A stretch of 64,000 nt of DNA, from the NCBI GenBank assembly GCA_032128115.1, contig JAQBHB010000002.1, positions 5,385-69,384 of the forward strand. The letters run 5' to 3'. The stretch is from Deltaproteobacteria bacterium. GTDB taxonomy: Bacteria > Myxococcota_A > UBA9160 > SMWR01. Every line of letters begins with the position of its first letter. Position 1 is the first letter of the stretch. The notes below the pieces were generated by a model. The model did not search any database and was not told the origin of the DNA. It saw only the letters and a list, made by a program, of their open reading frames with translations. The position numbers and the translations under genes are program-made. This document shows, piece after piece, positions 4,623 through 30,604 of the stretch.

Positions 4623-5399
4623 GTGATACCCTGCGGCGCCGTGTCGATCATCGACTTCGAACGAGCGGCCCGTGCCGCCCACGCCGCCGCCGACGCCGCC
4701 CGGCGCGAGATCCTGCCGCGCTTCCGGGCGGTGTCTGTCGAGACCAAGAGCGATGGCTCGCCGGTGACCGAAGCCGACCGGGCGGCCGAGCGGGCCATTC
4801 GCGCGGCCCTGCGCGAGGCCTTTCCCGACTACGCCATCCACGGCGAGGAATACGGAGCCGAGGGCGGTAGCGATGGACCGTGCTGGCTGGTGGACCCCAT
4901 CGACGGAACCCTCGGCTTTGCGCGGGGCATTCCGCTCTTCACGACGCTGATCGCCCTGCTCGTCGATGGAGTGCCCCAGCTCGGGTTGATCGACTGCCCC
5001 AGCGTGGACGAACGCTTCGTGGGCTGGACCGGCGGCGGCTGCCGACGCAACGGGACGCCGGTTCGGGTGTCGACGGAAACCGATCTCTCGCGGGCGGTGA
5101 TCTCCCACGGCGACCCGTTCTGCTTCGACCTGTTCCAGCAGCGGCCGGCCTTCGAACGCATGGCCCGGGAGATCCCCCTGCTGCGCGGCTACTCCGACGC
5201 CTTCGGACACGCCCAGGTCCTGAGCGGCGGTGTCGGCGCCATGCTGGATCTCCACCTGAATCCCTGGGATGCCGCGCCCACCCAGGTGCTGGTACCCGAG
5301 GCGGGCGGCGCGTGTGTAACGCTTTCACACGGCGGCAAGCTGGGGCTCGTGTTCGGAAGCCCCGCCCTCGTCGAGCAGCTGCAGGAGTTCCTGGATTAG
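4623..5399 (+). CDS. Inositol monophosphatase family protein (IMPase / histidinol-phosphatase-like)
   Basis: Contains ...DGSPVTEADRAAE...IHGEE...WLVDPIDGT...WDAAP, the IMPase signature motifs. Confidence 0.85.
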   Translation: MIPCGAVSIIDFERAARAAHAAADAARREILPRFRAVSVETKSDGSPVTEADRAAERAIRAALREAFPDYAIHGEEYGAEGGSDGPCWLVDPIDGTLGFARGIPLFTTLIALLVDGVPQLGLIDCPSVDERFVGWTGGGCRRNGTPVRVSTETDLSRAVISHGDPFCFDLFQQRPAFERMAREIPLLRGYSDAFGHAQVLSGGVGAMLDLHLNPWDAAPTQVLVPEAGGACVTLSHGGKLGLVFGSPALVEQLQEFLD

Positions 5400-10988: not shown

Positions 10989-12914
10989 GTGGGGCAAGGC
11001 AGCGACGGGCGCGTCTGGTGGGGGATCGGCCTCTCGCTGGCGCTGGCGTACACAGCACTCGCCGCGGCCTCGCCCCTGGCGGTGGGCATCTGGCAGGACG
11101 ACGCGATCTACGTGGTGACCGGCAGGGCGCTGGCCGCTGGCGAGGGCTACCGCCACGAAGAACTCGCGAGCCGTCCGCTCCAGACCAAGTACCCCATTCT
11201 GTACCCCGCCGTGCTCGCGCTCTCGTTCCGCGCATCACCGGATTTCCCCGGGAACCGGGCGCTGTGGATGGCGCCCACGGCCCTGTCCGCTGCTGCGTTG
11301 GTGGTGCTGTCGATGCTCTACTGCCGCGCCGCCTTCCGATTTGGCCGCCGCGAGATCCTTGTCCTGAGCGGATTCGCCGCGGCGGCACCGGCCCTGGTGG
11401 CCTTCGTCCGCTACCCGATGAGCGATCTGGTATACGGCGCGCTGGCGGTCGCAGCGCTCGTGTGTCTCGACGTGCGTCGCGAATCGGCGCCGAGCCGGGC
11501 GAGCGCCCTGGGTTGGACGGCGCTGGGAGGGTTGCTGGTGGGCCTGGCCGTGCTGACGCGCAGTATCGGCGTCTCGCTGGCATTCGCGGCCGTGGTCCTG
11601 CCCCTGGTGCAACGGCGCCTGGCCCACGCGGGCGTCGCGGCGCTGGCCCTCGCGGTCTGCGCCGGACCCTGGTGGATCTGGCAGGCCTGGGCAGCGGGCC
11701 AGAATGGCGACCTGCAGTCCGGGTTGCTGGAGGGCAGCGACCTCTCCTACGCCCTCTGGATCCCGCCGAACCTCGGCGAGCCGTTGCGCATCGTCGCCCA
11801 CAACCTGCTGCGAAGCGCGGTCGGCCTGGCGCACTTCCAGCTGGCCTTTCCCCGCGCTTTCGTGGGCTCGGCACTGGCGGGCGACACCACCGCGTGGATG
11901 CACGTGCTGGTGTGGCCCCTGGTGCTGGCGCTGCTCGTCGGCTTCGCGCGCAGCCTACGCCACGGCGTTCGCACCCTGCACGTGTACGCAATCGCCTACG
12001 CCGGCATGGTCCTGGTGTGGCCCTTCGAGCCGTACCGATTCCTGTTGCCCTGGACCCCGTTTCTCCTGGCGTTCCTGGGATGGGGCCTGCTTCTGCCGGG
12101 TCGCGGCCGCCTTCTCGCCGTCGCGGCGGCCGCGACACTCGCCGTGCTGTTTGCGGTGGAGGACGGGCGTCTGCTCGCGTCGAGCGACGAGCGCTACTAC
12201 CTGCGCGAGCGCTTGCCCGGCGTGGATCTCGTCGAGGTCGAAGCGCTCGAGCGCTGGATCGGCGCCAATACACCCGAATCCGCCGTGATCGCCTCGGCGT
12301 GGCCGGCCCGCTTCTACCTCACCACGGGTCGCCGCGGCGTGGTGACCTGGCCCGACCGCGACCCCTACACGCGCTACTACGGTCGGGACCGGAGCACCTG
12401 GACCTTCACCGCCGTCCCGGCGCGATCCGAGACGATTGCCATGGCGCGCGACATGCGAGCCCACTGGCGCGACGCCTGGCAGGGCGCGGGCGTCAGCCAC
12501 TACGTGGAGTCGCGCGACATGCGCGACGCCCTGGTGTTTGCAGCGAGCGTGCGCGGCCCCTCGAAGGCATTCGAGGAGATGTATGAGACACCCGGAGAAG
12601 GCTTCCGCGTCTACCGGATCGATTGGGACGTACAGGACAGTGAAGGCGTTTCAGGCGCCGGCGTGCCGCGTGAGTCCGCGCAGGAACAGGTCGATGGCGT
12701 CGTCGAAGACACGATCCAGCCGGCGACGCCGCAGGCGCCGGCGCTGAGCGGATCGCTCGGTCTGGATGATCCCGTTGGCCAGGGTCCACAGGATGTTGGC
12801 AGTCTCCCAGGGGTCGTAATCGAGAAACACGCCTTCACGGACGCCCTCTTCGATGATCTGGGCCAGCATCCGCAGGTTGCGCTCCCACAGGCAGGTCACC
12901 TGTTCCACCAGTGA
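10989..12914 (+). CDS. Polytopic membrane protein, GT-C/ArnT-PMT-like glycosyltransferase candidate
   Basis: 641-aa ORF. The N-terminal two thirds is strongly hydrophobic, with a first-loop WQDDAIYVV motif (DxxxY-like as in ArnT/PMT), followed by a soluble C-terminal domain. The last ~88 codons are antisense to the TetR gene. Start and end are both uncertain. Confidence 0.55.
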   Translation: MGQGSDGRVWWGIGLSLALAYTALAAASPLAVGIWQDDAIYVVTGRALAAGEGYRHEELASRPLQTKYPILYPAVLALSFRASPDFPGNRALWMAPTALSAAALVVLSMLYCRAAFRFGRREILVLSGFAAAAPALVAFVRYPMSDLVYGALAVAALVCLDVRRESAPSRASALGWTALGGLLVGLAVLTRSIGVSLAFAAVVLPLVQRRLAHAGVAALALAVCAGPWWIWQAWAAGQNGDLQSGLLEGSDLSYALWIPPNLGEPLRIVAHNLLRSAVGLAHFQLAFPRAFVGSALAGDTTAWMHVLVWPLVLALLVGFARSLRHGVRTLHVYAIAYAGMVLVWPFEPYRFLLPWTPFLLAFLGWGLLLPGRGRLLAVAAAATLAVLFAVEDGRLLASSDERYYLRERLPGVDLVEVEALERWIGANTPESAVIASAWPARFYLTTGRRGVVTWPDRDPYTRYYGRDRSTWTFTAVPARSETIAMARDMRAHWRDAWQGAGVSHYVESRDMRDALVFAASVRGPSKAFEEMYETPGEGFRVYRIDWDVQDSEGVSGAGVPRESAQEQVDGVVEDTIQPATPQAPALSGSLGLDDPVGQGPQDVGSLPGVVIEKHAFTDALFDDLGQHPQVALPQAGHLFHQ

Positions 12915-13319
12915 CGCGGGGATCTCGCCGATCACCGACTGGTTCTCGATGGCCCAGAAGATCTGGAAGTAGTCCGGGTTCTCGATGTAATGGCGAAAGT
13001 AGAAACGACTCGCCCGGCGGAGCTTCTCCACGGGCGAGAGCCCCGGACCCAGGGCGCCCTTGAATTTCTCGTCGAAGATCTCGCCATTGTGGCTGAGGAT
13101 GGCCACGTAGAGTTCGGCCTTGCTGTCGAAATAGCGGTAGAGGGTGCCCTTGGCGACGCCGGCCTTGTCGGCCACCTCGTCCAGATTGGCATTCATGAAG
13201 CCGTCGCGGAAGAAGACCTCCTTGGCGGCTTCCAGGATGCGGCGGTGCGACTCGGCCTTCTTCTGCACCCGGCGCTGGCCGCCCGTGGGCAGGGGCGAGC
13301 CGGTTCTAACCTGTACCAC
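12651..13319 (-). CDS. TetR/AcrR family transcriptional regulator, last gene of the FAS-like operon
   Basis: HRRILEAAKEVFFRDGFMNANLDEVADKAGVAKGTLYRYFDSKAELY is the canonical TetR HTH. Its start overlaps the carboxylase stop by 14 nt. Confidence 0.9.
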   Translation of the reverse strand: MVQVRTGSPLPTGGQRRVQKKAESHRRILEAAKEVFFRDGFMNANLDEVADKAGVAKGTLYRYFDSKAELYVAILSHNGEIFDEKFKGALGPGLSPVEKLRRASRFYFRHYIENPDYFQIFWAIENQSVIGEIPASLVEQVTCLWERNLRMLAQIIEEGVREGVFLDYDPWETANILWTLANGIIQTERSAQRRRLRRRRLDRVFDDAIDLFLRGLTRHAGA

Positions 13320-16300
13320 GAACCAGCTCGGCGATCAGGTAGGGCCTCATGTCTTCGGGTTCCACGAGGGTTTCCAGGGAGCCCACCTCGCGGGCTCGCT
13401 CCACAGTGTGAACTCCATCGAACTCCGTGGCCAGCTCCGATTGCTTCTCCAGGTAGACCTTCCTCCAGGTCTTCTCCCACTCCGGGGAAGCGCCGCCACT
13501 CTCGGGGCGCCGGGCCGCCTGGCGTAGCGCCTCGATCCGAGGATCGGAGGCGGTCCGGGCCCGCACCTCGCGTCCCAGCACCACGGCGGCCGCGGGAGCG
13601 CCGCCGATCACCGAGGCGTAGGAGCCGGTCAGGGCCGCCGCGTGGAGGCTCTCGTTGAGCGCACGCGAGAAGACCACGTAGGCGCCGCCGTGGTAGCGGG
13701 ACACCACCAGGAAGAGCAACGGCCCCTCGAAGTTCACCACCGCGCGGGCGATCTCCGCCCCGTATTCGAGCTGCCGCTTGCGCATGGACTCGGGCGAGCC
13801 ATCGAAGCCGGAGAGGTTGGCCAGGATCACCACCGGGCGGTTGCCGCTGGCGGCGTTCAGGGCCCGGGCCACCTTCTTCGAGGACTGGGGGAACAGGGTG
13901 CCGCCCGACCAGGCCGTGGGGCCGTCTGCCGGGCGGTAGCCCGACCGCGGCAGGGTCCGGCTCTCGATGCCGATCAGGCTGACCGGTCGACCGCCCAGGT
14001 GGGTGTCCCAGACGATGGCCGTCTCGGCCCCGGCCCAGCCGCGCCAGCGCTCCAGGAAGCCGCCGTCGTGATCCACCACCGACTGCATCACGGCGCGCAT
14101 GGAGAAGGGTCGTTTGCGGCCCGGGTTGGTGTCGGCATCGAAGATCTCGCCCACGCTCTCGAAGGGATGATCCTCCTCCGACGCACACGCGAATTCCGTC
14201 ACCAGGCGCTGGCTGGGATCGGCGGTGACGTGGGCGCGTGGCCCCTTCTCACCCGGCACCACATAGGTGTAGCGATAGTGCTCGTATAGGGTTCGATAGG
14301 CGTCCACCAGATCGCGGGCGAAGTACTGGGCCTCGCCGTTGGGACCCATCACACGTTCGTAGCCGCCGATCGCCACCTCATCTTCGGCCGACACGGATCC
14401 CGAAGCCTCCAGCGCCGCACGCCCCGTGAGCACCATGGAGGCTCCGGGGGTCATGATGAGGCAGCCCCGGGTGTGTTGGAGCATGGTGGCCAGGGCGTTG
14501 AAGTAGCTCTGGGCGCCCACGTTGACGCCGGCCACGATCACGTGGATCACGCCACCCGATTCGGTAAACGTGATGATGCGGCGGGCCACGCGCGCCGTGG
14601 CGTCCAGGTTCTCGGTGCCGCTGTCCATGGCGATGCGCGCGCCGCTGGACACGGGCACCCACTCCAGCGGCAGGCCGCTCTGCTCCGCCAGGTCGATCGC
14701 GGCCACGATGCGATCGCACTCGGCCGCCGCCAGCGAGCCCATGCTCACCGTGGGGTCCGAGAGCACGAGCACGCGCTGGATACCTTCCGGGACCTTTTCG
14801 GTGGGCGTCGAGAGGATGCCCATCACGATCGAACAGTCGTTCATCCCATAGGGGCGCCCGGCGACGCTCACGGCCGTCGGGTGCCCGCACGTCGGGTCCA
14901 GATCGAACTCCTCGAACTCGCCCGCCGGGAGCTGGCCGGCCTTCTCGTCACGCGCCACGCCCTGACCGCCCGGCGTCCCGGTGAGAAGCCGAACGATCTC
15001 GTAGGGGTAGAGCAGACGCCGGCGCCGGGCCTTCACCACGTTGCGCTCGTAGTCTCGGGCGGGAACCAGGGGATCACTGTGCACGTCGCGCCACGAGAGT
15101 TCCATATGGCTGCCCGTGGGATCGGAAATCACGACCTCGAGGGAACGCGGCGGTCGGGTGGGCTCGGCGCGATCGAGCACGTTCAGGCGCACCACCACCT
15201 TCTCCAGGCCCAGGTGGCGTGTGGCCGGCGCCAGGCGGCGCGCCAGGCGCTGCACCAGGTCGTCGTCCAGGAACAGGCTCGGGGACACGAACAACGCGAT
15301 GCGATTCCACTGCAGACGCCGGCGCGGGTCGCGCAGGCCCAGGTGGTTTCGCAGCGTGCGCGTCGCCTCGAAGAAGGCGCGCTCGAAGGCCGGCACGTGC
15401 AGCTGCGCCTCGTTTCCGGCGTCGGGTGAGCGACCCCGCACATCGGCAAGCACGAAGATGCGTTCGTCTCCGGGCACGTCAGGACTGCCCAGGTGGAAGC
15501 AGACGATTTCGTCCGGCGCCTCGAGCCGCTCCAGATCGAAGGCGCGCAGGCGGTCCAGGTCGATGCGCGCCGCGGTCTCCGGGTGCAGGCCGTGGAGGCC
15601 CGCGATCGGCACGAGGGGTCCCCCGGGACCCATGTAGCTGGAATGAACCGGGCGACCGTCTTCGGGCAGGTGCGACACGGTCAGGCGCTCGGCCGGGAGT
15701 CCGGAGGCCAGCACCGGCGCCAGGCTGTCGCGCAGTTCGGTCTCGTCGGGCACGGGCCCGGGCACCAGAAGCTCGATGGCGTGGACCTGACTGTGCCCCC
15801 GGCTCTGGGCTGCGGCGCGGGCGGCGCGCGACAGGCGCTCGAGCGCCGGAATCATCTCCTCTCGGCTGGCCACGCTGCCAAGCACCGTGCGGCCGTCGTG
15901 CAGGTCGATGCGCTCCACGTGCACCGTGCCAAGCACGCCGGAAGTGTGGCTCTCCAGCGCGGCCGGCGCGTAGAGCCGACACACGTGCGCCGCCACCGCC
16001 ACCGCGCGCCGGCGCGGATCCTCCTCTACCAGCCAACGGCCCGCGCGATCGAAAACGCTCTGGGGCGACGCCGCCAGGTGAACCAGCACGGCGGCGGGCG
16101 GCGGCGTGGGTGCCGACTCGGCGGCGGCCAGCCAGGCCTCCACCTCCTTGGTGGTGCGGCGCGCCTCGTTTTCCAGCTTCGGCCCTTCGAAGATGGCGTA
16201 ACCCGCCTCGATGGCGACGTCCGCCAGGGCGTCGGGCACCAGGCCGCGCATACCGGCGGTGAGCGAGAGCACCTCGGAGAGCGACTCGTCGTCGGACAGG

Positions 16301-18909
16301 TGGATCCCCGATGCGGCCAGCTCGTGGATGCGCCGGATGATTCCCAGGGCCAACCGATGGCGAAGCTCAGGCGACAGCTGCGACGCCAGCAAGCGCAGCA
16401 CCGCGCGTTCGAGGGGATCGTCGTGGCGAAGGCTCGACACCTGGTAGTGGGCGAGTGACCGGCCCAGCATCTCGACGAATTCGGCGGACTGCCCGGGGGT
16501 GCCAGCCGACATGTGGCGCAGCCAGCCGCGGAGCTGCGCGTGATTCGACGGCCCCGGGTTGCCGCCCAGTGCGGCCTGGGGCGCACGCATGAACAGGCGC
16601 GTGACATCGGTGAACAGGCGCAGCTCGTGGCGCATCTCGGCCATCTCCCACCGGAAGGCCTCCGAGAGCCCGTCCGGGAGCGGAGCCTCCAGGAACGCGG
16701 CGAGCTTCTCGCCGCGCTGGGGGTTCACGTCGTAGCCCATCACGATGCGCCGGATCTCGCTGCGAGCGGTGCGGATGGCGGCACGTCGCGCCTCGGTGTC
16801 GGCGCGATCGGCGGCATGAAGATCGGCGATGCCCTCGTTCTTCCGGGAGAAGAACAGATCGAGGGGATCCGGCTCGCTGGGCAGCTCCAGGCGATATTCG
16901 CCCGCCGTGCCATTGGCATCGGCGCTTTCCGCGGCGATCAGCAGGATCAGCTCACCTGCCGCCACCTGCTGGCCGCGAGCCACCACCAGTTCCTTGACGA
17001 CGCCGCTCACCGGCGCATCGAAGCCGATCTCCATCTTCATGGCTTCGAGCAGTCCCAGACATTGACCGGCCTCCACGCGATCGCCGGGCTTGACGTGCAG
17101 CGCGACCACCACCGCCGGCGTACCGGCCCGCACCTGGCCGGCCAGGTCCGTGCCGAAGCGATAGGGGCGCCCCTCCACCTCGACGCGCAGGCCGCGCTCC
17201 GAAACGTCGTGCAGCACGCGCAGGCTGCGTCCCCCCGTCTCCAGGGTGGCGCGGTGATCCCCCTCGGCGCGCAGGGTGGCGGTGACCACGCGACCTTCCA
17301 GATGGATGCGATAACGCCAGGCGCCCACCGCGAAGACTTCGAGGCGGTAGCTCTCGCCCCGGTGCGTGAGATCCACACGCTGCCCCTTGGAAGCCGGCAG
17401 CGAGGCCGGTGACAGGTTGCTGGGATCGGCGAAGAAGCCGCGCCGCGCCGCGTCGCGGGTTCGCTGGTAGGCGAGGATCGACGCGGCCACCAGCGCTTCG
17501 ACCTCGTGCGCACGGGTGCCGGAACGAAGCTCCGGCGAAGCGTCCAGCCACCCGATGTCGAGCTCTGCGGCGCGATACGGCGGGCTCTCCAGCAGGTCGA
17601 TCAGGAAGCCCTTGTTGGAGGCGCCGCCCTCCACCACCAGCTCGAAGTCCGTGAGCGCCGCCACCAGACGCGCTCGCGCCTCATCGCGGGTGTCGCCTGT
17701 GGCGATCACCTTGGCGATCAGGGAGTCGAATTCGGCGGGCACTCGCGAGCCGGCGGCGACCCCCGTGTCCACGCGGATGCGCGGGCCCATGGCCGGATCG
17801 AAACGACCGATCCGCCCCGGCGCCGGCATGAACTCGGATTGCGGATCCTCGGCGCAGACGCGGGCCTCGATGGCGAACATCGGGCGGGGCTTCAGATCGA
17901 GAGGCAGCGCCTCACCTCGAGCGATCCGGATCTGGAGCTGCACCAGATCCACGTTCCAGATCTCCTCGCTGATGCCGTGCTCCACCTGGAGACGCGGATT
18001 CACCTCCAGGAACCAGAATTCGCCCCCCGACACCAGGAACTCCACGGTTCCCACACCGGTGTACGCGATGCTCTCCGCAAGCCGCACGGCCGCCCGCTCG
18101 ATCGACGCCAGCAGGCGCTTCGGCAGGCCGCTGGGAGGCGCCTCCTCGAGGATCTTCTGGTGACGTCGCTGCACCGAGCAGTCGCGACAGCCCAGGGCGA
18201 TCACGTGGCCGTGCTGATCGCCGGCGATCTGCACCTCCACGTGGCGACCGCCGGAGAGCTTCCGCTCCAGCAACAGCGTGGAATCGCCGAAAGCCGACAG
18301 GCCCTCGGCCGAGGCGGAAGCGAACGCGCTTTCGATCTGCTCTTCGCTCTCCACCACCCGCATGCCACGGCCACCGCCGCCGGACGCGGCCTTCAAGATC
18401 ACCGGGAAGCCGATCCTGCGGGCGGCGCGCGCCGCCGACGCCGCATCCGCCACGGCGCCGTCGCTCCACGGAATCACGGGAAGCCCGGCGCGCTCGGCCA
18501 GCTGCTTGCCGCCCACCTTGTCGCCCACCGCGCGCATCACGTCGCCGGTGGGTCCCAGGAAGCGCATGCCTTCGGCCACTACCCGATCCGCGAACCCGGA
18601 ATCCTCGGCGGCGAACCCCCAACCGGGCCACACCGCGTCGGCCCGGACGTCTCGCAGGGTGTGGATCAGGGGCTCGACGTCCAGATAGGCGCGCACCGGA
18701 CCGCGAGGCGCTTCCAGGCGAACGGCGCGATCGGCGTGGCGCACGTACGGAGCCTCGCGGTCCGCGTCCGTATACAGGGCCACGCACTCGAGCGACGAGC
18801 CCTCGAGAGCGCGCAGGGCCTTCACGGCGCGAATACAGCGCATGGCCGCCTCGCCGCGATTCGTGATGGCCAGGCGTTCGATGGCTTGGATCTTCGGACG
18901 TCGGCTCAC
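13306..18909 (-). CDS. Single-chain multidomain acyl-CoA carboxylase (biotin carboxylase - BCCP - long linker - carboxyltransferase), LCC-like
   Basis: 1,867 aa. The N-terminal ATP-grasp biotin carboxylase reads IERLAITNRGEAAMRCIRA...GGGGRGMRVV...EVNPRLQVEH. The biotinyl motif is LEAMKMEIGF (Lys codon at 17035-17037). The C-terminal carboxyltransferase reads VGAQSYFNALATML...ILANLSGFDGSPESMRKRQLEYGAEIARAVVNFEGPLLFLVVSRYHGGAYVVFS. Confidence 0.9.
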   Translation of the reverse strand: MSRRPKIQAIERLAITNRGEAAMRCIRAVKALRALEGSSLECVALYTDADREAPYVRHADRAVRLEAPRGPVRAYLDVEPLIHTLRDVRADAVWPGWGFAAEDSGFADRVVAEGMRFLGPTGDVMRAVGDKVGGKQLAERAGLPVIPWSDGAVADAASAARAARRIGFPVILKAASGGGGRGMRVVESEEQIESAFASASAEGLSAFGDSTLLLERKLSGGRHVEVQIAGDQHGHVIALGCRDCSVQRRHQKILEEAPPSGLPKRLLASIERAAVRLAESIAYTGVGTVEFLVSGGEFWFLEVNPRLQVEHGISEEIWNVDLVQLQIRIARGEALPLDLKPRPMFAIEARVCAEDPQSEFMPAPGRIGRFDPAMGPRIRVDTGVAAGSRVPAEFDSLIAKVIATGDTRDEARARLVAALTDFELVVEGGASNKGFLIDLLESPPYRAAELDIGWLDASPELRSGTRAHEVEALVAASILAYQRTRDAARRGFFADPSNLSPASLPASKGQRVDLTHRGESYRLEVFAVGAWRYRIHLEGRVVTATLRAEGDHRATLETGGRSLRVLHDVSERGLRVEVEGRPYRFGTDLAGQVRAGTPAVVVALHVKPGDRVEAGQCLGLLEAMKMEIGFDAPVSGVVKELVVARGQQVAAGELILLIAAESADANGTAGEYRLELPSEPDPLDLFFSRKNEGIADLHAADRADTEARRAAIRTARSEIRRIVMGYDVNPQRGEKLAAFLEAPLPDGLSEAFRWEMAEMRHELRLFTDVTRLFMRAPQAALGGNPGPSNHAQLRGWLRHMSAGTPGQSAEFVEMLGRSLAHYQVSSLRHDDPLERAVLRLLASQLSPELRHRLALGIIRRIHELAASGIHLSDDESLSEVLSLTAGMRGLVPDALADVAIEAGYAIFEGPKLENEARRTTKEVEAWLAAAESAPTPPPAAVLVHLAASPQSVFDRAGRWLVEEDPRRRAVAVAAHVCRLYAPAALESHTSGVLGTVHVERIDLHDGRTVLGSVASREEMIPALERLSRAARAAAQSRGHSQVHAIELLVPGPVPDETELRDSLAPVLASGLPAERLTVSHLPEDGRPVHSSYMGPGGPLVPIAGLHGLHPETAARIDLDRLRAFDLERLEAPDEIVCFHLGSPDVPGDERIFVLADVRGRSPDAGNEAQLHVPAFERAFFEATRTLRNHLGLRDPRRRLQWNRIALFVSPSLFLDDDLVQRLARRLAPATRHLGLEKVVVRLNVLDRAEPTRPPRSLEVVISDPTGSHMELSWRDVHSDPLVPARDYERNVVKARRRRLLYPYEIVRLLTGTPGGQGVARDEKAGQLPAGEFEEFDLDPTCGHPTAVSVAGRPYGMNDCSIVMGILSTPTEKVPEGIQRVLVLSDPTVSMGSLAAAECDRIVAAIDLAEQSGLPLEWVPVSSGARIAMDSGTENLDATARVARRIITFTESGGVIHVIVAGVNVGAQSYFNALATMLQHTRGCLIMTPGASMVLTGRAALEASGSVSAEDEVAIGGYERVMGPNGEAQYFARDLVDAYRTLYEHYRYTYVVPGEKGPRAHVTADPSQRLVTEFACASEEDHPFESVGEIFDADTNPGRKRPFSMRAVMQSVVDHDGGFLERWRGWAGAETAIVWDTHLGGRPVSLIGIESRTLPRSGYRPADGPTAWSGGTLFPQSSKKVARALNAASGNRPVVILANLSGFDGSPESMRKRQLEYGAEIARAVVNFEGPLLFLVVSRYHGGAYVVFSRALNESLHAAALTGSYASVIGGAPAAAVVLGREVRARTASDPRIEALRQAARRPESGGASPEWEKTWRKVYLEKQSELATEFDGVHTVERAREVGSLETLVEPEDMRPYLIAELVRGTG

Positions 18910-19529
18910 GAGCTTGCGCCCTCACCGCCCGCCAGGCAGGCGTAGGCGACGAAGCGGCCGTGGTGCGAGAGCGAGAGCAGGGGCGCGGTGCCGCCCGAGA
19001 ACTCGACCTGCGGCACACGCCCGCTGCGCTCGATGCGAAGCTCGCGCGGCGCGACACGAAGCAGCCGGGCGACACCCGCCACCGCCAGATCGCGCGCGGC
19101 GCGACCCGGCGCCGCCGCCGAGAGTTCGCCTTCGACCCGCGCCACTTCCGCCTTCACGAGCCCCATGCGGGCACAAGGGTGGGTCGCAACGGCGTGCACG
19201 CAATCAGCTTCGAGTGTCACCCGCACGCGAAGGCGCAGCTCGCCGTGTATCACGTAGCCGGCCAGGACATCGCCGCCGCCGACACTCTCGGGTCGCAGCC
19301 GCGTCACGAATCGCGACGGCGCGAAAACCGCGTCCGGATCCACCCGGCGAGCGGCCTTGTAGGCGCTTTCCTTGGCGGCCCACAGCGCCCAGCGCAAGCA
19401 GTCGGGCCGTTCGCTGCACGCCAGCAGCCGGCGCTCGCTCCGCGCGAACACCCGCGCGTCGAAACCCGGATGTTGGGCACCCGGACGCGTCTCCGGATCA
19501 CCCAGATCGACTACGTCGTTACCGACCAT
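18906..19529 (-). CDS. 4'-phosphopantetheinyl transferase (Sfp/EntD type)
   Basis: 207 aa. Contains the WAAKESAYKA motif. ATGA overlap with the carboxylase start. Confidence 0.8.
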   Translation of the reverse strand: MVGNDVVDLGDPETRPGAQHPGFDARVFARSERRLLACSERPDCLRWALWAAKESAYKAARRVDPDAVFAPSRFVTRLRPESVGGGDVLAGYVIHGELRLRVRVTLEADCVHAVATHPCARMGLVKAEVARVEGELSAAAPGRAARDLAVAGVARLLRVAPRELRIERSGRVPQVEFSGGTAPLLSLSHHGRFVAYACLAGGEGASS

Positions 19530-20280
19530 CGAAGTACCGCTGTTCCATGTCGGCCAGGCAGCCCACGATCTGCTTGGCGATCTCGAGAGATCCCCGCAGG
19601 CCCGGGTGATCGGTCTTGGGTTCGACCCACCGGAGCGACACCCGGAAGCGATCCCCGCGCGCCGGGAAGTCGGACCAGTCGTCCTGGCCTTCTCCGCGCA
19701 TGTAGACGCACAGCACCCGACAGCCGGGCAGCGAGCGCAGCATGCGCCCCACGCCGTAGGCCGCCGCCTCGGGATCGACGCGTCCCGTGCGGCTGCGCCC
19801 CCCTTCCGGAAACACGAGGCCCACCTCGCCGCGCGCGAGCAGACTCGCGAAGCGTTGCATCACCTGGGTCGCTTCGCCCCGCGGGCCTCCCCGTTGGATG
19901 GGAAGGCACTTGAAGATGTAGGCCGCCACCCGACGGGTGAAGGTGGTGGCGAAGTTCATCCGCTCCGGCAGGTTCCAGGCCAGGGACGAGAAGTGGATCA
20001 GGTAGAACCACGGCGATCCCAGGGCCCAGCCGATCAGGAACGAATCGATCAGGGTCAGGTGGTTTGCGCACAACAGGAGCGGCGCGCCGTTCTCGCGCCG
20101 GATCGCGGCGTACGCGCGGCGAACCTCCCGCAGGCCCTCGATCCGGTATCGAAAGCCCAGACGCAGGACGGCGACCACCGCCGGCACCGTGAGCGGCGCC
20201 AGGGCGTACGCGATCCCGCGTTGGAGTGCGAGCTCCAGTCGAGGCCGCAACGGAGGGCGGCTTCTCGATGTCGTTGCCAC
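19519..20280 (-). CDS. Lysophospholipid / 1-acyl-sn-glycerol-3-phosphate acyltransferase family (PlsC-like)
   Basis: NHLTLIDS is the H(X)4D motif and FPEGGRSRTG is block III. GTG start overlaps the ACP stop by 1 nt. Confidence 0.8.
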   Translation of the reverse strand: MATTSRSRPPLRPRLELALQRGIAYALAPLTVPAVVAVLRLGFRYRIEGLREVRRAYAAIRRENGAPLLLCANHLTLIDSFLIGWALGSPWFYLIHFSSLAWNLPERMNFATTFTRRVAAYIFKCLPIQRGGPRGEATQVMQRFASLLARGEVGLVFPEGGRSRTGRVDPEAAAYGVGRMLRSLPGCRVLCVYMRGEGQDDWSDFPARGDRFRVSLRWVEPKTDHPGLRGSLEIAKQIVGCLADMEQRYFDGR

Positions 20281-20528
20281 TAGGAGATCTTGCCCTCGAT
20301 CAGGGTCACCGCGTCGCCCACGGTCTGCACCGTGTCCACATCGTCATCGGCGATCTCGATGTCGAAGGCGTCCTCGAACTCGAGCACCACGTCCACGAGG
20401 CGCGCCGAGTTCACCTTGAGGTCGTCCAGGATATGCGTGCCCATGGCCACTCCGTCCAGTGCTCCATGGTTCTTCACATACGGCGTCAAGATCTTTACCA
20501 CTCGCTCGAACACTTCCTGCTGACTCAC
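20280..20528 (-). CDS. Acyl carrier protein
   Basis: 83 aa from GTG 20528, preceded by AAGGAGGG 3 nt upstream. DDLKVNSARLVDVVLEFEDAFDIEI fits the ACP helix II Ser-attachment context. Confidence 0.8.
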   Translation of the reverse strand: MSQQEVFERVVKILTPYVKNHGALDGVAMGTHILDDLKVNSARLVDVVLEFEDAFDIEIADDDVDTVQTVGDAVTLIEGKIS

Positions 20529-20553
20529 GTTCCCTCCTTTGCGGTGAGCGCTC

Positions 20554-21846
20554 TCAGTCGCTCCATTTTCGAAAAACCAGACAAGCATTCACGTCTCCGA
20601 ACCCGAAGCCGGCCTTCACGATCACCTCCAGGCCGGGCAGCTCCAGGGCTTCGTGGGGGATCGACGCCGCGTGCGGCTCGATCTCGGGGTGCACGTCCTC
20701 GCAGTTGATCGAGGGATGCACGAAGCCCTCGTGCAGCATCAGCACGCAGGCGATCGACTCGATGGCGCCCGCGGCGCCCAGCGTGTGGCCGATCATCGAC
20801 TTGGTCGACGTGATGGGGGGCAGATGCCCGGGCTTGCGCTCGAGCGCCGCGGCCCAGGCCGACACCTCGCGCGGGTCGGCCCCGGTGGCCGTCAGGTGCC
20901 CGTTGATGGCGCCCACCTCGCCGGCGTCCACGGCCGCGTCGGCCAGCGCCGCGCGGATGCAGCGGCGCACTCCGTCCGGGTTGGGAGCCGTCATGCTGCC
21001 GCCCCCCCGCTGTCCGCCACAGTTCACGTCTCCGCCGGCCACCTCGGCATAGATGTGGGCGCCGCGGGTCCGGGCGCTCGCAAGGCTCTCGAGCAACACG
21101 ACGCCGGCCCCGCAGCCCGCCACGAATCCGCCGGCGCTGGCACTCATGGGTCGGGAGGCGCGCTCGGGCTCGTCGTTGAAGCGACGGCACAACACCCGCA
21201 TGGCGTCGAAGCCCGCCCAGATGTAGTGGCTCTCGCCCTCGGCGCCGCCGCACAGCATGCGGTCGGCCAGGCCGCGGCGGATGCGCAGCACGCCCTCGTA
21301 GATGGCCTCGGTTCCCGTGCTGCACGCGCTCGAGTTGGTGGTCACCTGGTTGCCCAGGGCCAGCAGCCCGCCGACCCGCGCCGAGATCCCGCTGGCCATG
21401 ACCTGCTCCACCGCCGTGCTTCCCAGGCGCCGCACCTTCTTGGCGTTGGTGAGGGGGACGAGCCTCTCGCCGGTGGTGTCCATGCCGCCAATGCCCGTGC
21501 CAATCACGCAACCCGATCCCCAGTCCACGGCGCTGTCGTCGTCGGGCTCCGGCCGGGGGAGGCCGCCGTCGCGCCAGGCGTCCAGGGCCGCGATGGACGC
21601 GAAGCGATGGCCCGAGTTCATGGCCATCAGCTCGTCCTCGTCGAAGGTCGCCGAGGCAATCTCGTCCACGCCCCGGGGCACCCCGGCTACGCGGCTTCCG
21701 AATTCGCACTCCAGCATGCGTTCGTGAACCCGGATCCCCGACCTCCCCTTGCGCAGGGCCAGGGCAAAGTCGTGGGGACTGTTGCCGTTGGGCGCCACCA
21801 CACCCATCCCGGTGATGACGACGCGCGTCCGATCGTCTCGAGTCAT
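20554..21846 (-). CDS. Beta-ketoacyl-ACP synthase I/II (FabB/FabF-like, Cys-His-His)
   Basis: Inner ATG of ORF 20554..22584. Contains RVVITGMGVVAPNG; NSSACSTGTEAI (active Cys); INGHLTATGADPRE and STKSMIGHTLGAAGAIE (two His). Confidence 0.9.
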   Translation of the reverse strand: MTRDDRTRVVITGMGVVAPNGNSPHDFALALRKGRSGIRVHERMLECEFGSRVAGVPRGVDEIASATFDEDELMAMNSGHRFASIAALDAWRDGGLPRPEPDDDSAVDWGSGCVIGTGIGGMDTTGERLVPLTNAKKVRRLGSTAVEQVMASGISARVGGLLALGNQVTTNSSACSTGTEAIYEGVLRIRRGLADRMLCGGAEGESHYIWAGFDAMRVLCRRFNDEPERASRPMSASAGGFVAGCGAGVVLLESLASARTRGAHIYAEVAGGDVNCGGQRGGGSMTAPNPDGVRRCIRAALADAAVDAGEVGAINGHLTATGADPREVSAWAAALERKPGHLPPITSTKSMIGHTLGAAGAIESIACVLMLHEGFVHPSINCEDVHPEIEPHAASIPHEALELPGLEVIVKAGFGFGDVNACLVFRKWSD

Positions 21847-22304
21847 CGCGGCACCCCCATCCCGGAGAGCACGCCGGAACACACGACGCTGCCATCCGGA
21901 AGACGCATCTCCACCTGGGAGCGCAGCTTGCGTCGCCGGAAGAAGACCTTGCGCGCGTGGACCGTGACGCGATCCGCCGGATTCACGACGCCCGAGAAAT
22001 CCACCTGGACGTCGGTAAACAGCGTGAGGATCTTGCCACCCTCGTCGTCGGAACCGTCGAGAGCCAGCAGGTAGATTCCCAGGGCCACCACGCCGGCCTG
22101 GGCCATGGCCTCCACCAGGATCACGCCCGGCGTGATCGGCCTGCCAGGAAAATGGCCGCGGTAGAACTCCAGTTCTGGAGAGAAGCACACGGTCGACACC
22201 ACGTGGTCGTCGTCGATCTCGAGGATCTGATCGATGAACCGGAACGGCTCCCGATGCGGGATCCGGTCGAGTACCTGCTGGGGCGTCAGCACGCGTCCGG
22301 TCAT
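21843..22304 (-). CDS. fabZ: 3-hydroxyacyl-ACP dehydratase FabZ-like
   Basis: Contains IPHREPFRFID...FYRGHFPGRPITPGVILVEAMAQ. ATGA overlaps on both sides. Confidence 0.85.
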   Translation of the reverse strand: MTGRVLTPQQVLDRIPHREPFRFIDQILEIDDDHVVSTVCFSPELEFYRGHFPGRPITPGVILVEAMAQAGVVALGIYLLALDGSDDEGGKILTLFTDVQVDFSGVVNPADRVTVHARKVFFRRRKLRSQVEMRLPDGSVVCSGVLSGMGVPR

Positions 22305-22891
22305 CGCTCCATCCTCCCCCCGCGCGAGCGTTCACTCGGGTGCGGGTAGTCGGCGTAGAGGATGTCCCGGAAGGTTCCCACCTTGGCGCGCTTGATGCTG
22401 TAGACCGGCTCGTCGTCCACCAGCACGGTGGCGTCTCCCAACACCATGCTGGCGCCTGCGTGGGCGATTTCGGTGTAGCGGCGCACATCGATCTCGGTGC
22501 GCACGCAGCCGTCGTGGGGCCGGATCTGTCCGAAGAACTCCACCTCGCCACAGCCCAGGGCCCGCCCCGCACCGAGGCCACCACTCTGGACGCAGAAGAA
22601 ACCCAGCAGCTGCCACACCCCGTCCAGCCCCAGACACCCGGGCTGAACCGGATCGCCGCGGAAGTGACAGCTGAAGAACCAGTCGTCGAGCCCCACGTCG
22701 CGCTCGGCCACGATGCGCCCGCGGGTTCCCTGGCGCTGGATCTCCAGCACCCGGTCGAGCATCAGCATGGGCGGCAACGGCAGCCGCGCCTCGAAGCTTT
22801 CCGGCGCATCGGACACCAGGGTTCCGTTGGCGAAGGCCAGCAGATCCTCCTTGGCGAAACTCTTGCGCGACAGGAATTCTTCGTAGGTCAT
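22301..22891 (-). CDS. fabA: 3-hydroxydecanoyl-ACP dehydratase/isomerase FabA-like
   Basis: Inner ATG of ORF 22301..23800. LPLPPMLMLDRV...DDWFFSCHFRGDPVQPGCLGLDGVWQLLGFF matches the FabA active-site region. Confidence 0.85.
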   Translation of the reverse strand: MTYEEFLSRKSFAKEDLLAFANGTLVSDAPESFEARLPLPPMLMLDRVLEIQRQGTRGRIVAERDVGLDDWFFSCHFRGDPVQPGCLGLDGVWQLLGFFCVQSGGLGAGRALGCGEVEFFGQIRPHDGCVRTEIDVRRYTEIAHAGASMVLGDATVLVDDEPVYSIKRAKVGTFRDILYADYPHPSERSRGGRMER

Positions 22892-23895
22892 GCGGGCTCC
22901 TGGGGGCGCTCCTCGAAGCGAAGCAGGTAGCTCGCCCACGTGAGCCCGGCGCCCACGCCCACCACGGCCACGTCGTCCCGATCGGCCCACTTCTCCCAAT
23001 GCATGGAGAGCACCGAGGCGGAGCCGGCGGCCGCCGTATTGCCGAACCACTCCACGTTGTGGTGGTGGCACTCGGGCGCGATGCCGCACTGGTTTCGCAC
23101 CGACTCCAGCATCAGGCGGTTGGCCTGGTGCCCCACGAAGTGGAAGCCCCGGTGGTCGTCGGCGTATTCCTCGCGCAGGGCGTTCAGGCAGCGGGTCATG
23201 CGCTTGATGCCGAAGGTCTGGACCGTGCGGCCCTCCTGGCGGAAATGACCGATCCGCGGCACCACCACCTTGTCGCCCCCCGCTGGGCTCGACGCGAGCG
23301 TGCTCGTCACCACCCGGGCTCGCGCCGGATGCCGCGTGGACACCACCGCCGCCGCGGCCCCGTCGCCCCACAACACCGCGGACGCGCGATCCGTGTAGTC
23401 CACGGTCTTGGTGAGACAGTCGGGCACGGCCAGCAGCACATAGTCGGGCAACCGGTCGGGCTGCATGCGCATCAGCAGGTCCATCTGGACGTAGAAGCTC
23501 GTGCACGCGGACACCACGTCGAAGGCGGGCACCTCGAGACCCAGCAGGCGAGCGATGTTGCAGGCTTCGGCCGGAGACGACGTGTCCGAGGCCGAGCCGC
23601 CGGCGATCACCATCCCGATCGCGTCTTTCGAAATCCCCGCCCGCTCGATGGCCATGGCGGCGGCCTGGCTGCCAAGCTCCGCGTTCGACACCACGGCGGC
23701 CTCCATGGCGCCGCGGGGATCGCGATTGCGCGTTTCGCGGATGTAATCCAGGGGCAGCACGGTGCGGCGCGCGCGGATCCCGGTTCGCTCCAGGATCCAC
23801 TCGTCACTGGTTCCGATGTCCAGCTCTTCCAGGAAGCGGTTGTCCATCTCGTTGTCCGGGTGCTGGTGGCCGAATCCGTGCACGAACAGCGTCAT
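22888..23895 (-). CDS. Beta-ketoacyl-ACP synthase III family (FabH-like, Cys-His-Asn)
   Basis: Inner ATG of ORF 22888..23973. Contains SDEWILERTGIRARR, DVVSACTSF (Cys), VGHQANRLM (His) and FGNTAAAGSASV (Asn). Confidence 0.85.
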   Translation of the reverse strand: MTLFVHGFGHQHPDNEMDNRFLEELDIGTSDEWILERTGIRARRTVLPLDYIRETRNRDPRGAMEAAVVSNAELGSQAAAMAIERAGISKDAIGMVIAGGSASDTSSPAEACNIARLLGLEVPAFDVVSACTSFYVQMDLLMRMQPDRLPDYVLLAVPDCLTKTVDYTDRASAVLWGDGAAAAVVSTRHPARARVVTSTLASSPAGGDKVVVPRIGHFRQEGRTVQTFGIKRMTRCLNALREEYADDHRGFHFVGHQANRLMLESVRNQCGIAPECHHHNVEWFGNTAAAGSASVLSMHWEKWADRDDVAVVGVGAGLTWASYLLRFEERPQEPA

Positions 23896-24842
23896 CGCTG
23901 CACCCCGGAGATGTGCTCGCCGCCGTCGACCCGGATCACTTCGCCGTTGATCCAGGCTGCGTCGTCGCTGCACAGCAGGTAGATGGCATTGGCCACGTCG
24001 CGCGGCGTGGTGAGCCGGCCCAGGGGGTTGCGGCTGCGAGCCTGGGCCTTCAGGTGGTCGCTGCCGGGAATCGCCTGCAGGGCGGGGGTGTCGGTGATGC
24101 CCGCCTGCACCACGTTGGAGCGGATCCCGAAGGGCGCAAGCTCCACGGCCATGGCCCGGGCGATGGACTCCAGCGCCACCTTGGCCGCGGCCACACCGGC
24201 GTAGCCCTTCCAGGCCACCTGATTGCCCTCACTGGTGAGGCCCAGCACCCGCGCGTCCGACGCGAACAGCCCGCGGGTGAGCACGGCCTGGGTCCAGCCC
24301 AGCAGGCTCGTGCCCATACTGTGGATCGTGCGGCCCAGGTCTTCCTCATCCAGGTAGCGCGTCGGGTAGCTGGGCGCGCTGGCGAGCGACTGCAGGGCAT
24401 CGACACCGCCGGCGAAGAGTTCGTCCACGGCGCTCCTCACCCGGGCCGCATCCACGCCCAGCGACGTCGCAAGTGCTTCGGCGGCCTGGTCGCGGTCCGG
24501 ATTTCTTGTCTCGGGCGCAATCAGCTTCAGGTTCCCGAAGGCGATGGAGTGCAGCAGCATGCGGACCCGGCCGTCTTCCCCCAGGGCCGCGGCGAGCTGC
24601 GCGAGGATCTCGTCACGCTTTTCCGAATCCAGGGCATCGGCGTTGAACGTGAGCAGCGACACCCCGGTGCCGCGCAGTTTCTCGAACTCGGGCTCGATGC
24701 GTGCCATGGCGCCACGGCGATCCCGGTGAACGAGACACAGGTTCATTCCGTGCTCGGCGAGTTTGTGGGCAGTGGCGAGACCGAAGCCGCTGGATCCGCC
24801 GAGGATCAGACCCCAATGTCCGGATTCGAACGCAGCTGTCAC
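23892..24842 (-). CDS. SDR-type enoyl-ACP reductase, FabL/FabI-like
   Basis: GTG 24842 is preceded by AGGGGGG and followed by GLILGGSSGFG (Rossmann). HSIAFGN is like the FabI HSIAFA motif. YAGVAAAK is Tyr-x6-Lys, the enoyl-reductase spacing rather than the ketoreductase Y-x3-K. DTPALQAIPGSDHLKAQARSRNPLGRL parallels B. subtilis FabL as I recall it. Confidence 0.7.
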   Translation of the reverse strand: MTAAFESGHWGLILGGSSGFGLATAHKLAEHGMNLCLVHRDRRGAMARIEPEFEKLRGTGVSLLTFNADALDSEKRDEILAQLAAALGEDGRVRMLLHSIAFGNLKLIAPETRNPDRDQAAEALATSLGVDAARVRSAVDELFAGGVDALQSLASAPSYPTRYLDEEDLGRTIHSMGTSLLGWTQAVLTRGLFASDARVLGLTSEGNQVAWKGYAGVAAAKVALESIARAMAVELAPFGIRSNVVQAGITDTPALQAIPGSDHLKAQARSRNPLGRLTTPRDVANAIYLLCSDDAAWINGEVIRVDGGEHISGVQR

Positions 24843-24954
24843 CGGTCCCCCCTGGTTGCGCGATGGCCGCGACCCCGAGTCGGTATGCTCCCCCTCGGCG
24901 GACGCTTCCGCCACGGAACACACAAACATGACTCCGGGTCAATCGAAGGGCCGG

Positions 24955-25018
24955 AAATATGACTAACGGTCATTTTCATGTCAAGGGTCCGAGCTGAAAC
25001 ATAGAATGTAGGTGTTTC
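24955..25018. promoter_or_regulatory. AT-rich divergent promoter island with two palindromes (candidate operator sites)
   Basis: IR1 at 24955-24976 is AAATATGAC-taacg-GTCATTTT (core ATGAC/GTCAT perfect). IR2 at 24996-25018 is GAAACA-n11-TGTTTC. Local GC is far below the flanks. The island lies between the operon start (24842, minus) and the ATG at 25029 (plus). Confidence 0.5.
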
Positions 25019-26703: not shown

Positions 26704-27474
26704 TCAGAAGGGCCAGTTGCTGGCGATCAGACCGCCGTCCACTTCCATCACCTTGCCGGTGACGAAGCTCGACGCCGGCGACGCCAGATAGAGAGCCGCC
26801 AGGGCGATGTCCTCCACCTGGCCGATGCGAGCCATGGGCGTTCTCGACTCCATGGCACCGCGAAGTTCGTCGTTCAGGAACGGCGCCAGGGCCGAGGTCT
26901 CCACGGCGCCCACGCCAATGGCGTTCACGCGCACGTTCGGTGCGAACTCGGCCGCCAGCTGTTGGGTCATGAACGACAGCGCTGCCTTCGCAGTGCCGTA
27001 GGCCACGAAGTTTGCCTGGGGCAGGCGTCCCGCGGCCGACGAGATGTTCACGATCGAGCCGCCGCCGGTCTCCAGCATGTGGGGAATCACCAGACGACTC
27101 ATGTGGAAGGCCGTGGTCACGTTGAAGTGGAAGGCGCGCTCCAGGCTGCGGTCGCTGGTCTGGAGGGCGGCCTTCGGCGGCGAGCCTCCGGCGTTGTTCA
27201 CCAGGATGTCGATGCGACCGAATTCCTTGAGGGTCTGGGCCACCACGTCGTCGAGCTGTTCGTCCTGCATCACGTCGCAGGGGACGGCCAGGGCCCGCCG
27301 TCCCAGACTGCGCACCTTCGCGGCCACGGCCTCGATCTGTTCGAGCGTACGGGCGGCGCACACCACGTTCGCTCCCATCTCGGCGAACGCCAGGGCCGAG
27401 CCCTCGCCGATGCCGCGGCCGGCGCCGGTCACGATCGCCACCTTGTCGTCGAGTCGGAATCGATCCAGGATCAC
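26704..27474 (-). CDS. Classical SDR oxidoreductase (FabG-like ketoreductase type)
   Basis: Contains VAIVTGAGRGIG, NNAGG and YGTAKAAL (Y-x3-K). Confidence 0.8.
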   Translation of the reverse strand: MILDRFRLDDKVAIVTGAGRGIGEGSALAFAEMGANVVCAARTLEQIEAVAAKVRSLGRRALAVPCDVMQDEQLDDVVAQTLKEFGRIDILVNNAGGSPPKAALQTSDRSLERAFHFNVTTAFHMSRLVIPHMLETGGGSIVNISSAAGRLPQANFVAYGTAKAALSFMTQQLAAEFAPNVRVNAIGVGAVETSALAPFLNDELRGAMESRTPMARIGQVEDIALAALYLASPASSFVTGKVMEVDGGLIASNWPF

Positions 27475-27636
27475 GGACGGACCTCCTCACTGCCATCGTC
27501 GAATGGAACGGGTCATTATAGACTGCCGCTGGCCCCGGGAGGTGCCGTGTGATGGTCAAGCGGGTGTTCGTCTTGCTGCGTCTTCCGCATCGGGCCCAGG
27601 AGAACGCAGTCGTTGGGAAGTAGGCAACACCGCCCC

Positions 27637-30597: not shown

Positions 30598-30604
30598 ACG
30601 TGCG

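Follow-up and report, generated by a model that had tools for sequence, protein, structure and literature searches.

Does a compact run of fatty-acid synthesis genes in an uncultured bacterium encode its ordinary fatty-acid synthase, or a second one set aside for a particular lipid? The question is raised by a 64,000-nt stretch of contig JAQBHB010000002.1 (positions 5,385 to 69,384, forward strand; assembly GCA_032128115.1, Deltaproteobacteria bacterium, Myxococcota_A in GTDB), hereafter the window. Ten genes on its minus strand, running from 24842 to 12651, encode an enoyl-acyl carrier protein (ACP) reductase (ER), 3-oxoacyl-ACP synthase III (KAS III), FabA, a FabZ-like dehydratase, an elongating KAS I/II, an ACP, an acyltransferase (AT), a phosphopantetheinyl transferase (PPTase), a single-chain acyl-CoA carboxylase (ACC) and a TetR-family regulator. 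The reading we favour, with a probability of roughly 0.55, makes them an auxiliary type II fatty-acid synthase (FAS-II) operon in an uncultured lineage of Myxococcota, with a private ACP that feeds an acyltransferase of the glycerol-3-phosphate acyltransferase/lysophospholipid acyltransferase (GPAT/LPLAT) type. The loci described below establish the gene identities, the intact catalytic motifs, the operon structure and its conservation, the variable architecture, and the co-occurrence of the TetR gene with a palindromic site.

Specificity-setting genes are kept while generic steps vary

Relatives of the operon were collected through a genome scan with the ACC, look-ups of exact proteins and a metagenome scan with an AT profile, and architectures were tallied for the 44 loci with at least 7.5 kb of sequence upstream of the ACC gene. 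Twenty-six hold an operon in the same order, three hold a stripped form and 15 hold the ACC gene alone, all 15 of these being metagenome-assembled genomes (MAGs) of Polyangiaceae. A first-pass annotation of the window, made by a model from the letters alone, had proposed a gene-neighbourhood check of the cassette; the tally of 26 in 44 answers it in favour of conservation. Because the order recurs across about 29 independent loci at 50-86% protein identity, the gene run does not consist of chance open reading frames (ORFs).

Every one of the 26 full versions carries KAS III, FabZ, KAS, ACP and AT. FabA is present in 21 and FabG in 10, where it occupies a slot between KAS III/FabA and FabZ; the ER is absent in seven and the PPTase in four. 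FabD occurs in a single locus, L089 (2320-16200), which is also the fullest, reading FabD-ER-KAS III-FabA-FabG-FabZ-KAS-ACP-AT-PPTase-ACC. In the window operon, searches with Pfam and NCBIfam found neither FabG (3-oxoacyl-ACP reductase) nor FabD (malonyl-CoA:ACP transacylase), so the self-sufficient unit pictured in the first-pass annotation lacks two of its steps. Nor can an unsaturated product be the hallmark that had been suggested: since a third of the versions lack FabA, the product is not defined by unsaturation. The genes that are kept cover primer choice, extension, dehydration, carrier and destination, and those that vary cover malonyl transfer, ketoreduction and enoyl reduction. This is the pattern expected if the generic steps are borrowed from a housekeeping FAS.

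The stripped loci extend this pattern. In L009 (6008-13276), genes for a DinG-like helicase, a short-chain dehydrogenase/reductase (SDR) and FabG precede that for ACC in conserved synteny, and ER, KAS III, FabZ, KAS, ACP, AT and PPTase are all missing; L009 and its sister in the ACC tree, L084, which has a full operon, share FabG proteins of 75% identity. L139 (8917-16184) and L125 (9747-16187), also in conserved synteny, retain only KAS III-AT-ACC, and L139 adjoins a ClC channel gene and the same helicase gene as L009. All stripped loci keep an intact ACC frame of 1,860 aa. Because ACC persists where KAS and ACP have been lost, another consumer of malonyl-CoA is implied, and the stripped loci together with the stand-alone orthologue of Polyangiaceae suggest that ACC also serves housekeeping synthesis.

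Carriers are nearly all labelled Myxococcota or Deltaproteobacteria, with locus GC contents of 49-75%; a few are labelled Spirochaetales, Geobacter or Candidatus Eisenbacteria. The contig of L089 lies in a MAG with the last of these labels, which may reflect horizontal transfer or an error of binning or labelling. The loci labelled Spirochaetales (L004, L009, L016, L031) or Geobacter (L022, L024) come from co-assembly MAGs and group with Myxococcota loci in the ACC tree; L004, L016 and L031 keep the operon order, L022 the PPTase-ACC pair, and L009 is the stripped form already described. These Spirochaetales and Geobacter labels are probably wrong.

Catalytic residues are intact in divergent enzymes

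Pfam and NCBIfam agree with every domain assignment. The nearest solved structures to the ER are Bacillus subtilis FabL (3oic) and Thermus thermophilus FabI (1ulu), and its motif YAGVAAAK aligns with YTTVGVSK of FabL; the ER also has an insertion of about 45 aa. Given these relatives and the Y-x6-K spacing, the 316-aa protein is an enoyl reductase and not the missing ketoreductase. The catalytic Cys (SACTSF), His (GHQAN) and Asn (FGNTAAA) of KAS III are intact in an alignment with Staphylococcus aureus FabH (1zow), as are the Cys (SACSTG) and two His (NGHLT and MIGHTLGAAG) of the elongating KAS when aligned with T. thermophilus FabF (1j3n). FabA matches the Escherichia coli and Pseudomonas enzymes at E 1e-39 and keeps the catalytic His of CHF and Asp of GLD. 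The FabZ-like protein has a Pfam FabA-like domain with its catalytic His and Glu in the motif GHFPGRPITPGVILVEAMAQ (GHFP...VEAMAQ).

These intact sites sit in divergent proteins. FabA alone exceeds an NCBIfam equivalog cut-off (NF003509, 197 bits against 124), and the other components reach about 40-90% of theirs: 133 bits against 328 for the ER with the FabL model, 148 against 292 for KAS III (TIGR00747), 285 against 494 (FabF) and 254 against 630 (FabB) for the elongating KAS, 79 against 155 for the FabZ-like protein (TIGR01750) and 45 against 70 for the ACP (TIGR00517). In the ACP, the attachment serine lies in DLKVNSARLVD, where N-S-A replaces the usual D-S-L; identity to E. coli AcpP is 30-40%, and orthologues share 65-80% with one another. 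The sub-cut-off scores and the divergent ACP therefore also favour an auxiliary FAS-II.

A 260-aa classical SDR (26704-27486, minus strand) is encoded 1.9 kb upstream on the same strand as the operon, beyond a divergent DsbA/GH3 pair, an arrangement kept in L003. Being 30-37% identical to operon-type FabG, it is no obvious stand-in for the missing ketoreductase.

Accessory or housekeeping synthesis

The same loci can be read in another way, as the primary housekeeping FAS-II of the lineage, encoded in an all-in-one fab operon with FabD and FabG located elsewhere in some members. This is the main rival, and we consider it less likely. Housekeeping enzymes usually pass the equivalog cut-offs that all components except FabA fall short of, and the ACP has low identity to AcpP and lacks D-S-L. 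The stripped loci L009, L139 and L125 lack KAS, ACP and FabZ yet keep an intact ACC, which would require another FAS in those cells; ER, ketoreductase and transacylase are repeatedly missing from the operon, and other Myxococcota, represented by the Polyangiaceae MAGs, live without it.

Several observations nevertheless weigh against an auxiliary role and on the side of housekeeping. The operon can be self-sufficient, since L089 has every FAS-II activity from FabD through to ACC, and the catalytic residues are intact throughout. On the complete chromosome OZ245015.1 the operon carries the sole full-length multidomain ACC that was found, as it does in each genome. The PlsC-like and AcpS-like functions are of housekeeping type. 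The operon flanks are ordinary chromosomal genes that differ between subgroups and are partly conserved within them, so the operon looks vertically inherited and not like a mobile island; it is stable and conserved over the whole range of GC contents. The genes missing from L009 and L139 could have moved instead of being lost, the ACC tree that relates these loci is a simple neighbour-joining tree, and the canonical fab/acpP set elsewhere in the genome is one that we infer. The 64-kb window holds no other fab genes; searches of the window and the flanks of 88 loci (about 1.4 Mb) with E. coli AcpP and the operon proteins found no fab paralogues, a result that is uninformative either way.

On balance, the first-pass claim that the cassette is accessory and not housekeeping has gained support, through the divergent ACP, the sub-cut-off scores, the missing generic genes and the stripped forms; this support is indirect. 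Should the operon be the only FAS of its hosts, it would be an unusually divergent housekeeping system, which matters when the completeness of FAS is scored in MAGs. Bradymonadia have been reported to lack FabB/F and FabI/L (PMC7460792), and no tie between them and the operon lineage is established.

A eukaryote-type carboxylase

Pfam places the biotin carboxylase (BC) domain of the ACC at residues 10-456, the biotin carboxyl carrier protein (BCCP) domain at 593-658, with biotin site EAMKM at K625, and the carboxyltransferase (CT) at 1376-1860. The best PDB matches of the C-terminal 1167 aa are the central domain-CT (CD-CT) parts of Chaetomium and yeast ACC (E 1e-19 to 1e-17), ahead of the beta subunits of propionyl-CoA carboxylase (PCC) and ACC (E 1e-10). 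ACC_central (PF08326) was unreported for the window protein at E<=0.001 and is precomputed for many orthologues that are 60-67% identical to it. Judged by its sequence, the ACC is a eukaryote-type multidomain enzyme, SACE_4237-like and belonging to the bacterial 'group V', and its predicted substrate is probably acetyl-CoA or propionyl-CoA.

SACE_4237 of Saccharopolyspora erythraea accepts both acetyl- and propionyl-CoA as substrates, and fatty-acid synthesis draws on the malonyl-CoA that it makes (PMC6491548). Both proteins are single chains of about 200 kDa with BC, BCCP, central and CT regions, and in both the CT is nearest to eukaryotic ACC. The two differ in context: SACE_4237 is a stand-alone, essential actinobacterial gene (PMC6491548), whereas the ACC gene of the window, in Myxococcota, is the last enzyme gene in a fab-like operon and is translationally coupled within it. 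Shewanella AccS has been described as a 'multiple-domain ACCase' (PMC11602165).

A long-chain acyl-CoA carboxylase (LCC, 'group III' in PMC6491548) was considered and rejected: none of 40 solved-structure matches of the C-terminal part is named LCC. The eukaryote-type CT therefore points to malonyl-CoA supply and lends no support to an alpha-branched product, so that neither such a product, raised in the first-pass annotation, nor a long-chain role of the carboxylase is upheld. To our knowledge, no eukaryote-type multidomain ACC has been seen elsewhere in translational coupling with a type II FAS, a private ACP and an acyltransferase of glycerolipid type.

The acyltransferase and the destination of the chain

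All of 31 orthologues share the AT motifs HX4D (NHLTLID) and FPEGGRSR without change. An AlphaFold2 model (pLDDT 87) has a long N-terminal helix (residues 3-32), and the best folds found by Foldseek were human GPAT1 (8e4y, E 4e-6) and mycobacterial PatA (5f2z, E 1e-5). Matches at the sequence level are weaker. The protein scores 17 bits against the PlsC model TIGR00530, with its cut-off of 103, and matches the lyso-ornithine-lipid acyltransferase OlsA weakly (E 0.006); a single-sequence search of the PDB found no significant match to PlsC, and a profile search returned weak ones. A protein collection contains 1,799 relatives of the AT, and relatives are encoded on at least 568 metagenome stretches.

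The window also contains genes for a myo-inositol-1-phosphate synthase (34911-36188, plus strand) and an inositol monophosphatase (4608-5399, plus strand), which hint at inositol-containing lipids or solutes; PatA, the second-best fold of the AT, acts on an inositol lipid.

A dedicated chain for a defined envelope lipid has a precedent in rhizobia, where the cluster acpXL-fabZXL-fabF2XL-fabF1XL-(adhA2XL)-lpxXL makes the very-long-chain fatty acid of lipid A (PMC5613085). Both systems read as an accessory FAS-II that brings its own ACP, dehydratase and KAS and ends in an acyltransferase, and the rhizobial one relies on housekeeping FabD, FabG and FabI. The window operon goes beyond it with KAS III, FabA, ER, PPTase and the 1,867-aa ACC, and differs in having one KAS instead of two, an AT of family PF01553 in place of PF03279 (LpxXL), and a host of another phylum.

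By this analogy, the operon might supply a dedicated acyl chain to an envelope component other than a glycerolipid, for example lipid A, an amino-lipid or an inositol lipid. The shared logic of private ACP, dehydratase, KAS and acyltransferase (PMC5613085) speaks for such a role, as do the fold match to PatA, which acylates a mannoside of phosphatidylinositol, the weak OlsA match and the presence of both inositol genes in the window. It is made improbable by the family of the AT, which is not that of LpxXL and LpxL, by the single KAS, and by the absence of any conserved neighbour tied to lipopolysaccharide, ornithine-lipid or inositol-lipid genes; the inositol genes lie 10-20 kb from the operon and their linkage is not conserved in other loci.

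An AcpS-like PPTase with a predicted insertion

PPTases of the Sfp type (group II) are pseudo-dimers of about 230 aa with GxD and WxxKE in their second half, and those of the AcpS type (group I) have the order GxD, KEA, SxSH in a unit of about 120-130 aa. The window protein carries GNDVVD at residues 3-8, WAAKE at 50-54 and SLSHHG at 186-191, which is the AcpS order. A single-sequence PDB search gave no match, and a profile search returned AcpS chains only, weakly (E 0.006). In the AlphaFold2 model (pLDDT 93), a stretch of about 125 residues can be superposed on a single PPTase unit and the top fold match is Thermotoga maritima AcpS; over the whole chain, Foldseek fits Sfp-type enzymes poorly (TM 0.32-0.34, rmsd about 10 Å). 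The N-terminal motif positions and these poor fits rule out the Sfp type, and motif order and model together make the protein best described as AcpS-like with a putative inserted subdomain of about 80 residues (207 aa in total). Nine of the ten gene identities given in the first-pass annotation stand; its 'Sfp-type' label has to be replaced, and the role it implied for the carboxylase corrected.

Comparison with known systems

The housekeeping operon of Streptococcus reads fabT-fabH-acpP-fabK-fabD-fabG-fabF-accB-fabZ-accC-accD-accA. As in such Firmicutes operons, the window places a regulator, fab genes, an ACP and a carboxylase in one transcription unit. The Firmicutes operons, in contrast, encode canonical enzymes with a four-subunit ACC, always include FabD and FabG, and have no PlsC-like acyltransferase or PPTase, whereas the window operon is made up of divergent, paralogue-like proteins, with generic steps often missing.

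Aryl-polyene (ape) clusters are type II systems with private ACPs, FabZ-like dehydratases and an LPLAT-family acyltransferase, ApeD. They raise the idea that the operon is a specialised-metabolite cluster, akin to these or to type II polyketide synthases (PKSs), whose product is a pigment or signalling lipid. The FabZ-like protein does show weak matches to the ApeI-like and ApeP-like families; aryl-polyene clusters, too, have a dedicated ACP, PPTase and LPLAT-type acyltransferase, and borrowing of FabD is known from type II PKSs. We regard the idea as highly improbable, since most versions carry an ER with Y-x6-K, FabA is closely related to true FabA, and the single KAS has no chain-length-factor partner with which to form the ketosynthase/chain-length factor pair of ape clusters. 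The operon and its conserved flanks also contain no adenylation or ammonia-lyase starter enzyme, thioesterase, cyclase, glycosyltransferase or exporter, the last two being represented in ape clusters by a glycosyltransferase and LolA/MMPL genes; the operon has instead ER, FabA and ACC. The earlier judgement that this is not an aryl-polyene, ole, dar or polyunsaturated fatty acid (PUFA) locus is supported; the aryl-polyene hallmark genes are absent from both operon and conserved flanks.

A closer parallel for the link between synthase and acyltransferase is the myxobacterial PUFA synthase Pfa3, which has a C-terminal acylglycerolphosphate acyltransferase (AGPAT) domain and for which direct transfer from ACP to phospholipid has been proposed (PMC4882568). 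In both systems a dedicated synthase is joined to its own glycerolipid acyltransferase; Pfa3 is a type I iterative megasynthase for polyunsaturated chains, whereas the window operon encodes separate type II enzymes, an enoyl reductase among them.

A literature search yielded bacterial multidomain ACCs and the analogous systems above, and no account of the ten-gene operon; the impression that its gene order is undescribed is in keeping with this. The operon stands out by its coupled eukaryote-type ACC, its atypical PPTase and its wide occurrence in uncultured Myxococcota. Relatives of the AT come from many metagenome samples and many MAG projects; a carrier in culture did not turn up. An automatic pipeline would label these genes as ordinary fab genes and could thereby hide a distinct lipid pathway. 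Its variants, with or without FabD, FabG, ER and FabA or stripped, amount to a natural dissection of pathway-specific from borrowed steps. A bolder reading is that a self-contained line with eukaryote-like parts (ACC, GPAT1-fold AT, private ACP and unusual PPTase) makes an undescribed class of membrane lipid in globally distributed uncultured Myxococcota. That is a long shot; if it were true, the pairing of ACC and acyltransferase would bear on the origin of eukaryotic cytosolic lipid synthesis.

A working model of the pathway

If the operon is an auxiliary FAS-II, a single promoter would drive its transcription, the single-chain ACC would produce malonyl-CoA and the AcpS-like PPTase would activate the private ACP. 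On this carrier, KAS III would prime the chain and KAS I/II would elongate it. Dehydration would fall to FabZ, joined where present by FabA, which could add a cis double bond, and the FabL/FabI-like reductase would saturate the chain. Malonyl transfer by FabD and, in the window, ketoreduction by FabG would be borrowed from the housekeeping FAS in trans, and ACC probably also serves housekeeping synthesis. The finished acyl-ACP may be handed directly to the membrane-associated GPAT/LPLAT-fold acyltransferase, which would esterify a presumed glycerolipid-type acceptor. In the sublineage of the window, TetR would repress the operon through ATGAC-N5-GTCAT over the promoter, and, by analogy with FadR and FasR, acyl-CoA might release it.

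A TetR regulator with a candidate operator

The last gene encodes a protein with TetR_N (E 5e-16) and TetR C-terminal domains in Pfam; its nearest NCBIfam models, both far under their cut-offs, are the acyl-CoA-sensing FadR (Bacillus type) and FasR. A TetR gene in this downstream position is confined to the window species and L003. The 5+5 palindrome was recognised by reading the sequence and comparing it with L003. A second copy, with one mismatch, lies 17 nt downstream at 24928-24942. The exact palindrome occurs at the same promoter position only in the TetR-carrying L003 and L086-88, and in none of 84 other loci; this co-occurrence with the TetR gene makes it a good operator candidate. L089 has a divergent TetR gene upstream, which is not an orthologue, its similarity to the window TetR being limited to the helix-turn-helix region.

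A 641-aa plus-strand ORF (10989-12914) is convergent with the TetR gene and shares 264 nt with its 3' end. The ORF has high third-position GC and no Pfam or NCBIfam match; in a public record of the same species it is annotated and the TetR gene is not. Within the overlap, third-position GC falls to 0.67-0.76 in the plus-strand ORF and is 0.80-0.83 in the TetR frame.

Operon layout, junctions and promoter

Genes were picked by third-position GC and start-codon context, because at about 69% GC the window makes raw ORF lists noisy. The ten genes (Table 1) are joined by overlaps of 1-14 nt, apart from a single 25-nt gap. The four junctions from ER to KAS are 4-nt ATGA overlaps (ER/KAS III, KAS III/FabA, FabA/FabZ and FabZ/KAS); beyond the gap, the overlaps measure 1 nt for ACP/AT, 11 nt for AT/PPTase, 4 nt for PPTase/ACC and 14 nt for ACC/TetR. 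Between 12300 and 25100, the minus strand has only one promoter-like site. L003 retains it (TTGACG, 17 nt, CATATT) despite diverged surrounding intergenic DNA. With the promoter in this position, the transcription unit extends about 140 nt past the end reported earlier. The description of ten coupled minus-strand genes forming one lipid-synthesis unit is thus borne out by boundaries, overlaps, sole promoter and recurring order. Rfam and tRNA scans of the window gave no match.

Some starts are less certain than others. The alternative TetR start would replace the ACC/TetR overlap with a 37-nt gap, and the alternative AT start, TTG 20250, is used in a public record of the same species (GCA_032128315.1). 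The ACC start is secure, because Biotin_carb_N starts as early as residue 10 and alignments with orthologues start at residues 4-10; the later ATG chosen in the same-species record would truncate the biotin-carboxylase N-domain.

Table 1. Genes and control elements of the operon, in window coordinates
Feature	Position	Strand	Details
Sigma-70-like promoter	24956..24984	-	TTGACA, 17 nt, CATATT
Palindrome ATGAC-N5-GTCAT, candidate TetR operator	24959..24973		within promoter spacer and -10 region
Enoyl-ACP reductase (ER)	23892..24842	-	GTG start 24842; 316 aa
KAS III (FabH-like)	22888..23895	-	ATG start 23895; 335 aa
FabA, 3-hydroxyacyl-ACP dehydratase/isomerase	22301..22891	-	196 aa
FabZ-like dehydratase	21843..22304	-	153 aa
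Elongating KAS I/II	20554..21846	-	430 aa
Shine-Dalgarno AAGGAGGG	20532..20539	-	inside the sole (25-nt) gap, precedes the ACP gene; read from the sequence
ACP, dedicated	20280..20528	-	GTG start 20528; 82 aa
Acyltransferase (AT), GPAT/LPLAT family PF01553	19519..20280	-	GTG start 20280; 253 aa (243 aa from alternative start)
PPTase	18906..19529	-	ATG start 19529; 207 aa
Single-chain biotin carboxylase (ACC): BC, BCCP, central region, CT	13306..18909	-	GTG start 18909; 1867 aa
TetR-family regulator	12651..13319	-	GTG start 13319; 222 aa (205 aa from GTG 13268)

Other genes in the window

An SCP-x-type thiolase resembling 'lipid-transfer protein' is encoded at 30461-31810 (plus strand); in the same-species record this gene adjoins one for a ChsH2-type zinc-ribbon/OB-fold protein. 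A gene for a phosphoenolpyruvate (PEP)-mutase/isocitrate-lyase-family protein (42001-42876, plus strand) is followed by one for a zinc-type alcohol dehydrogenase, an arrangement that could belong to phosphonate or methylisocitrate metabolism. A 1,267-aa RHS-repeat protein is encoded at 51282-55085 (minus strand), and L001 and L085 likewise have RHS/Tc-toxin-like genes close to the operon. Towards the end of the window (60001-64000), GC falls to 62%.

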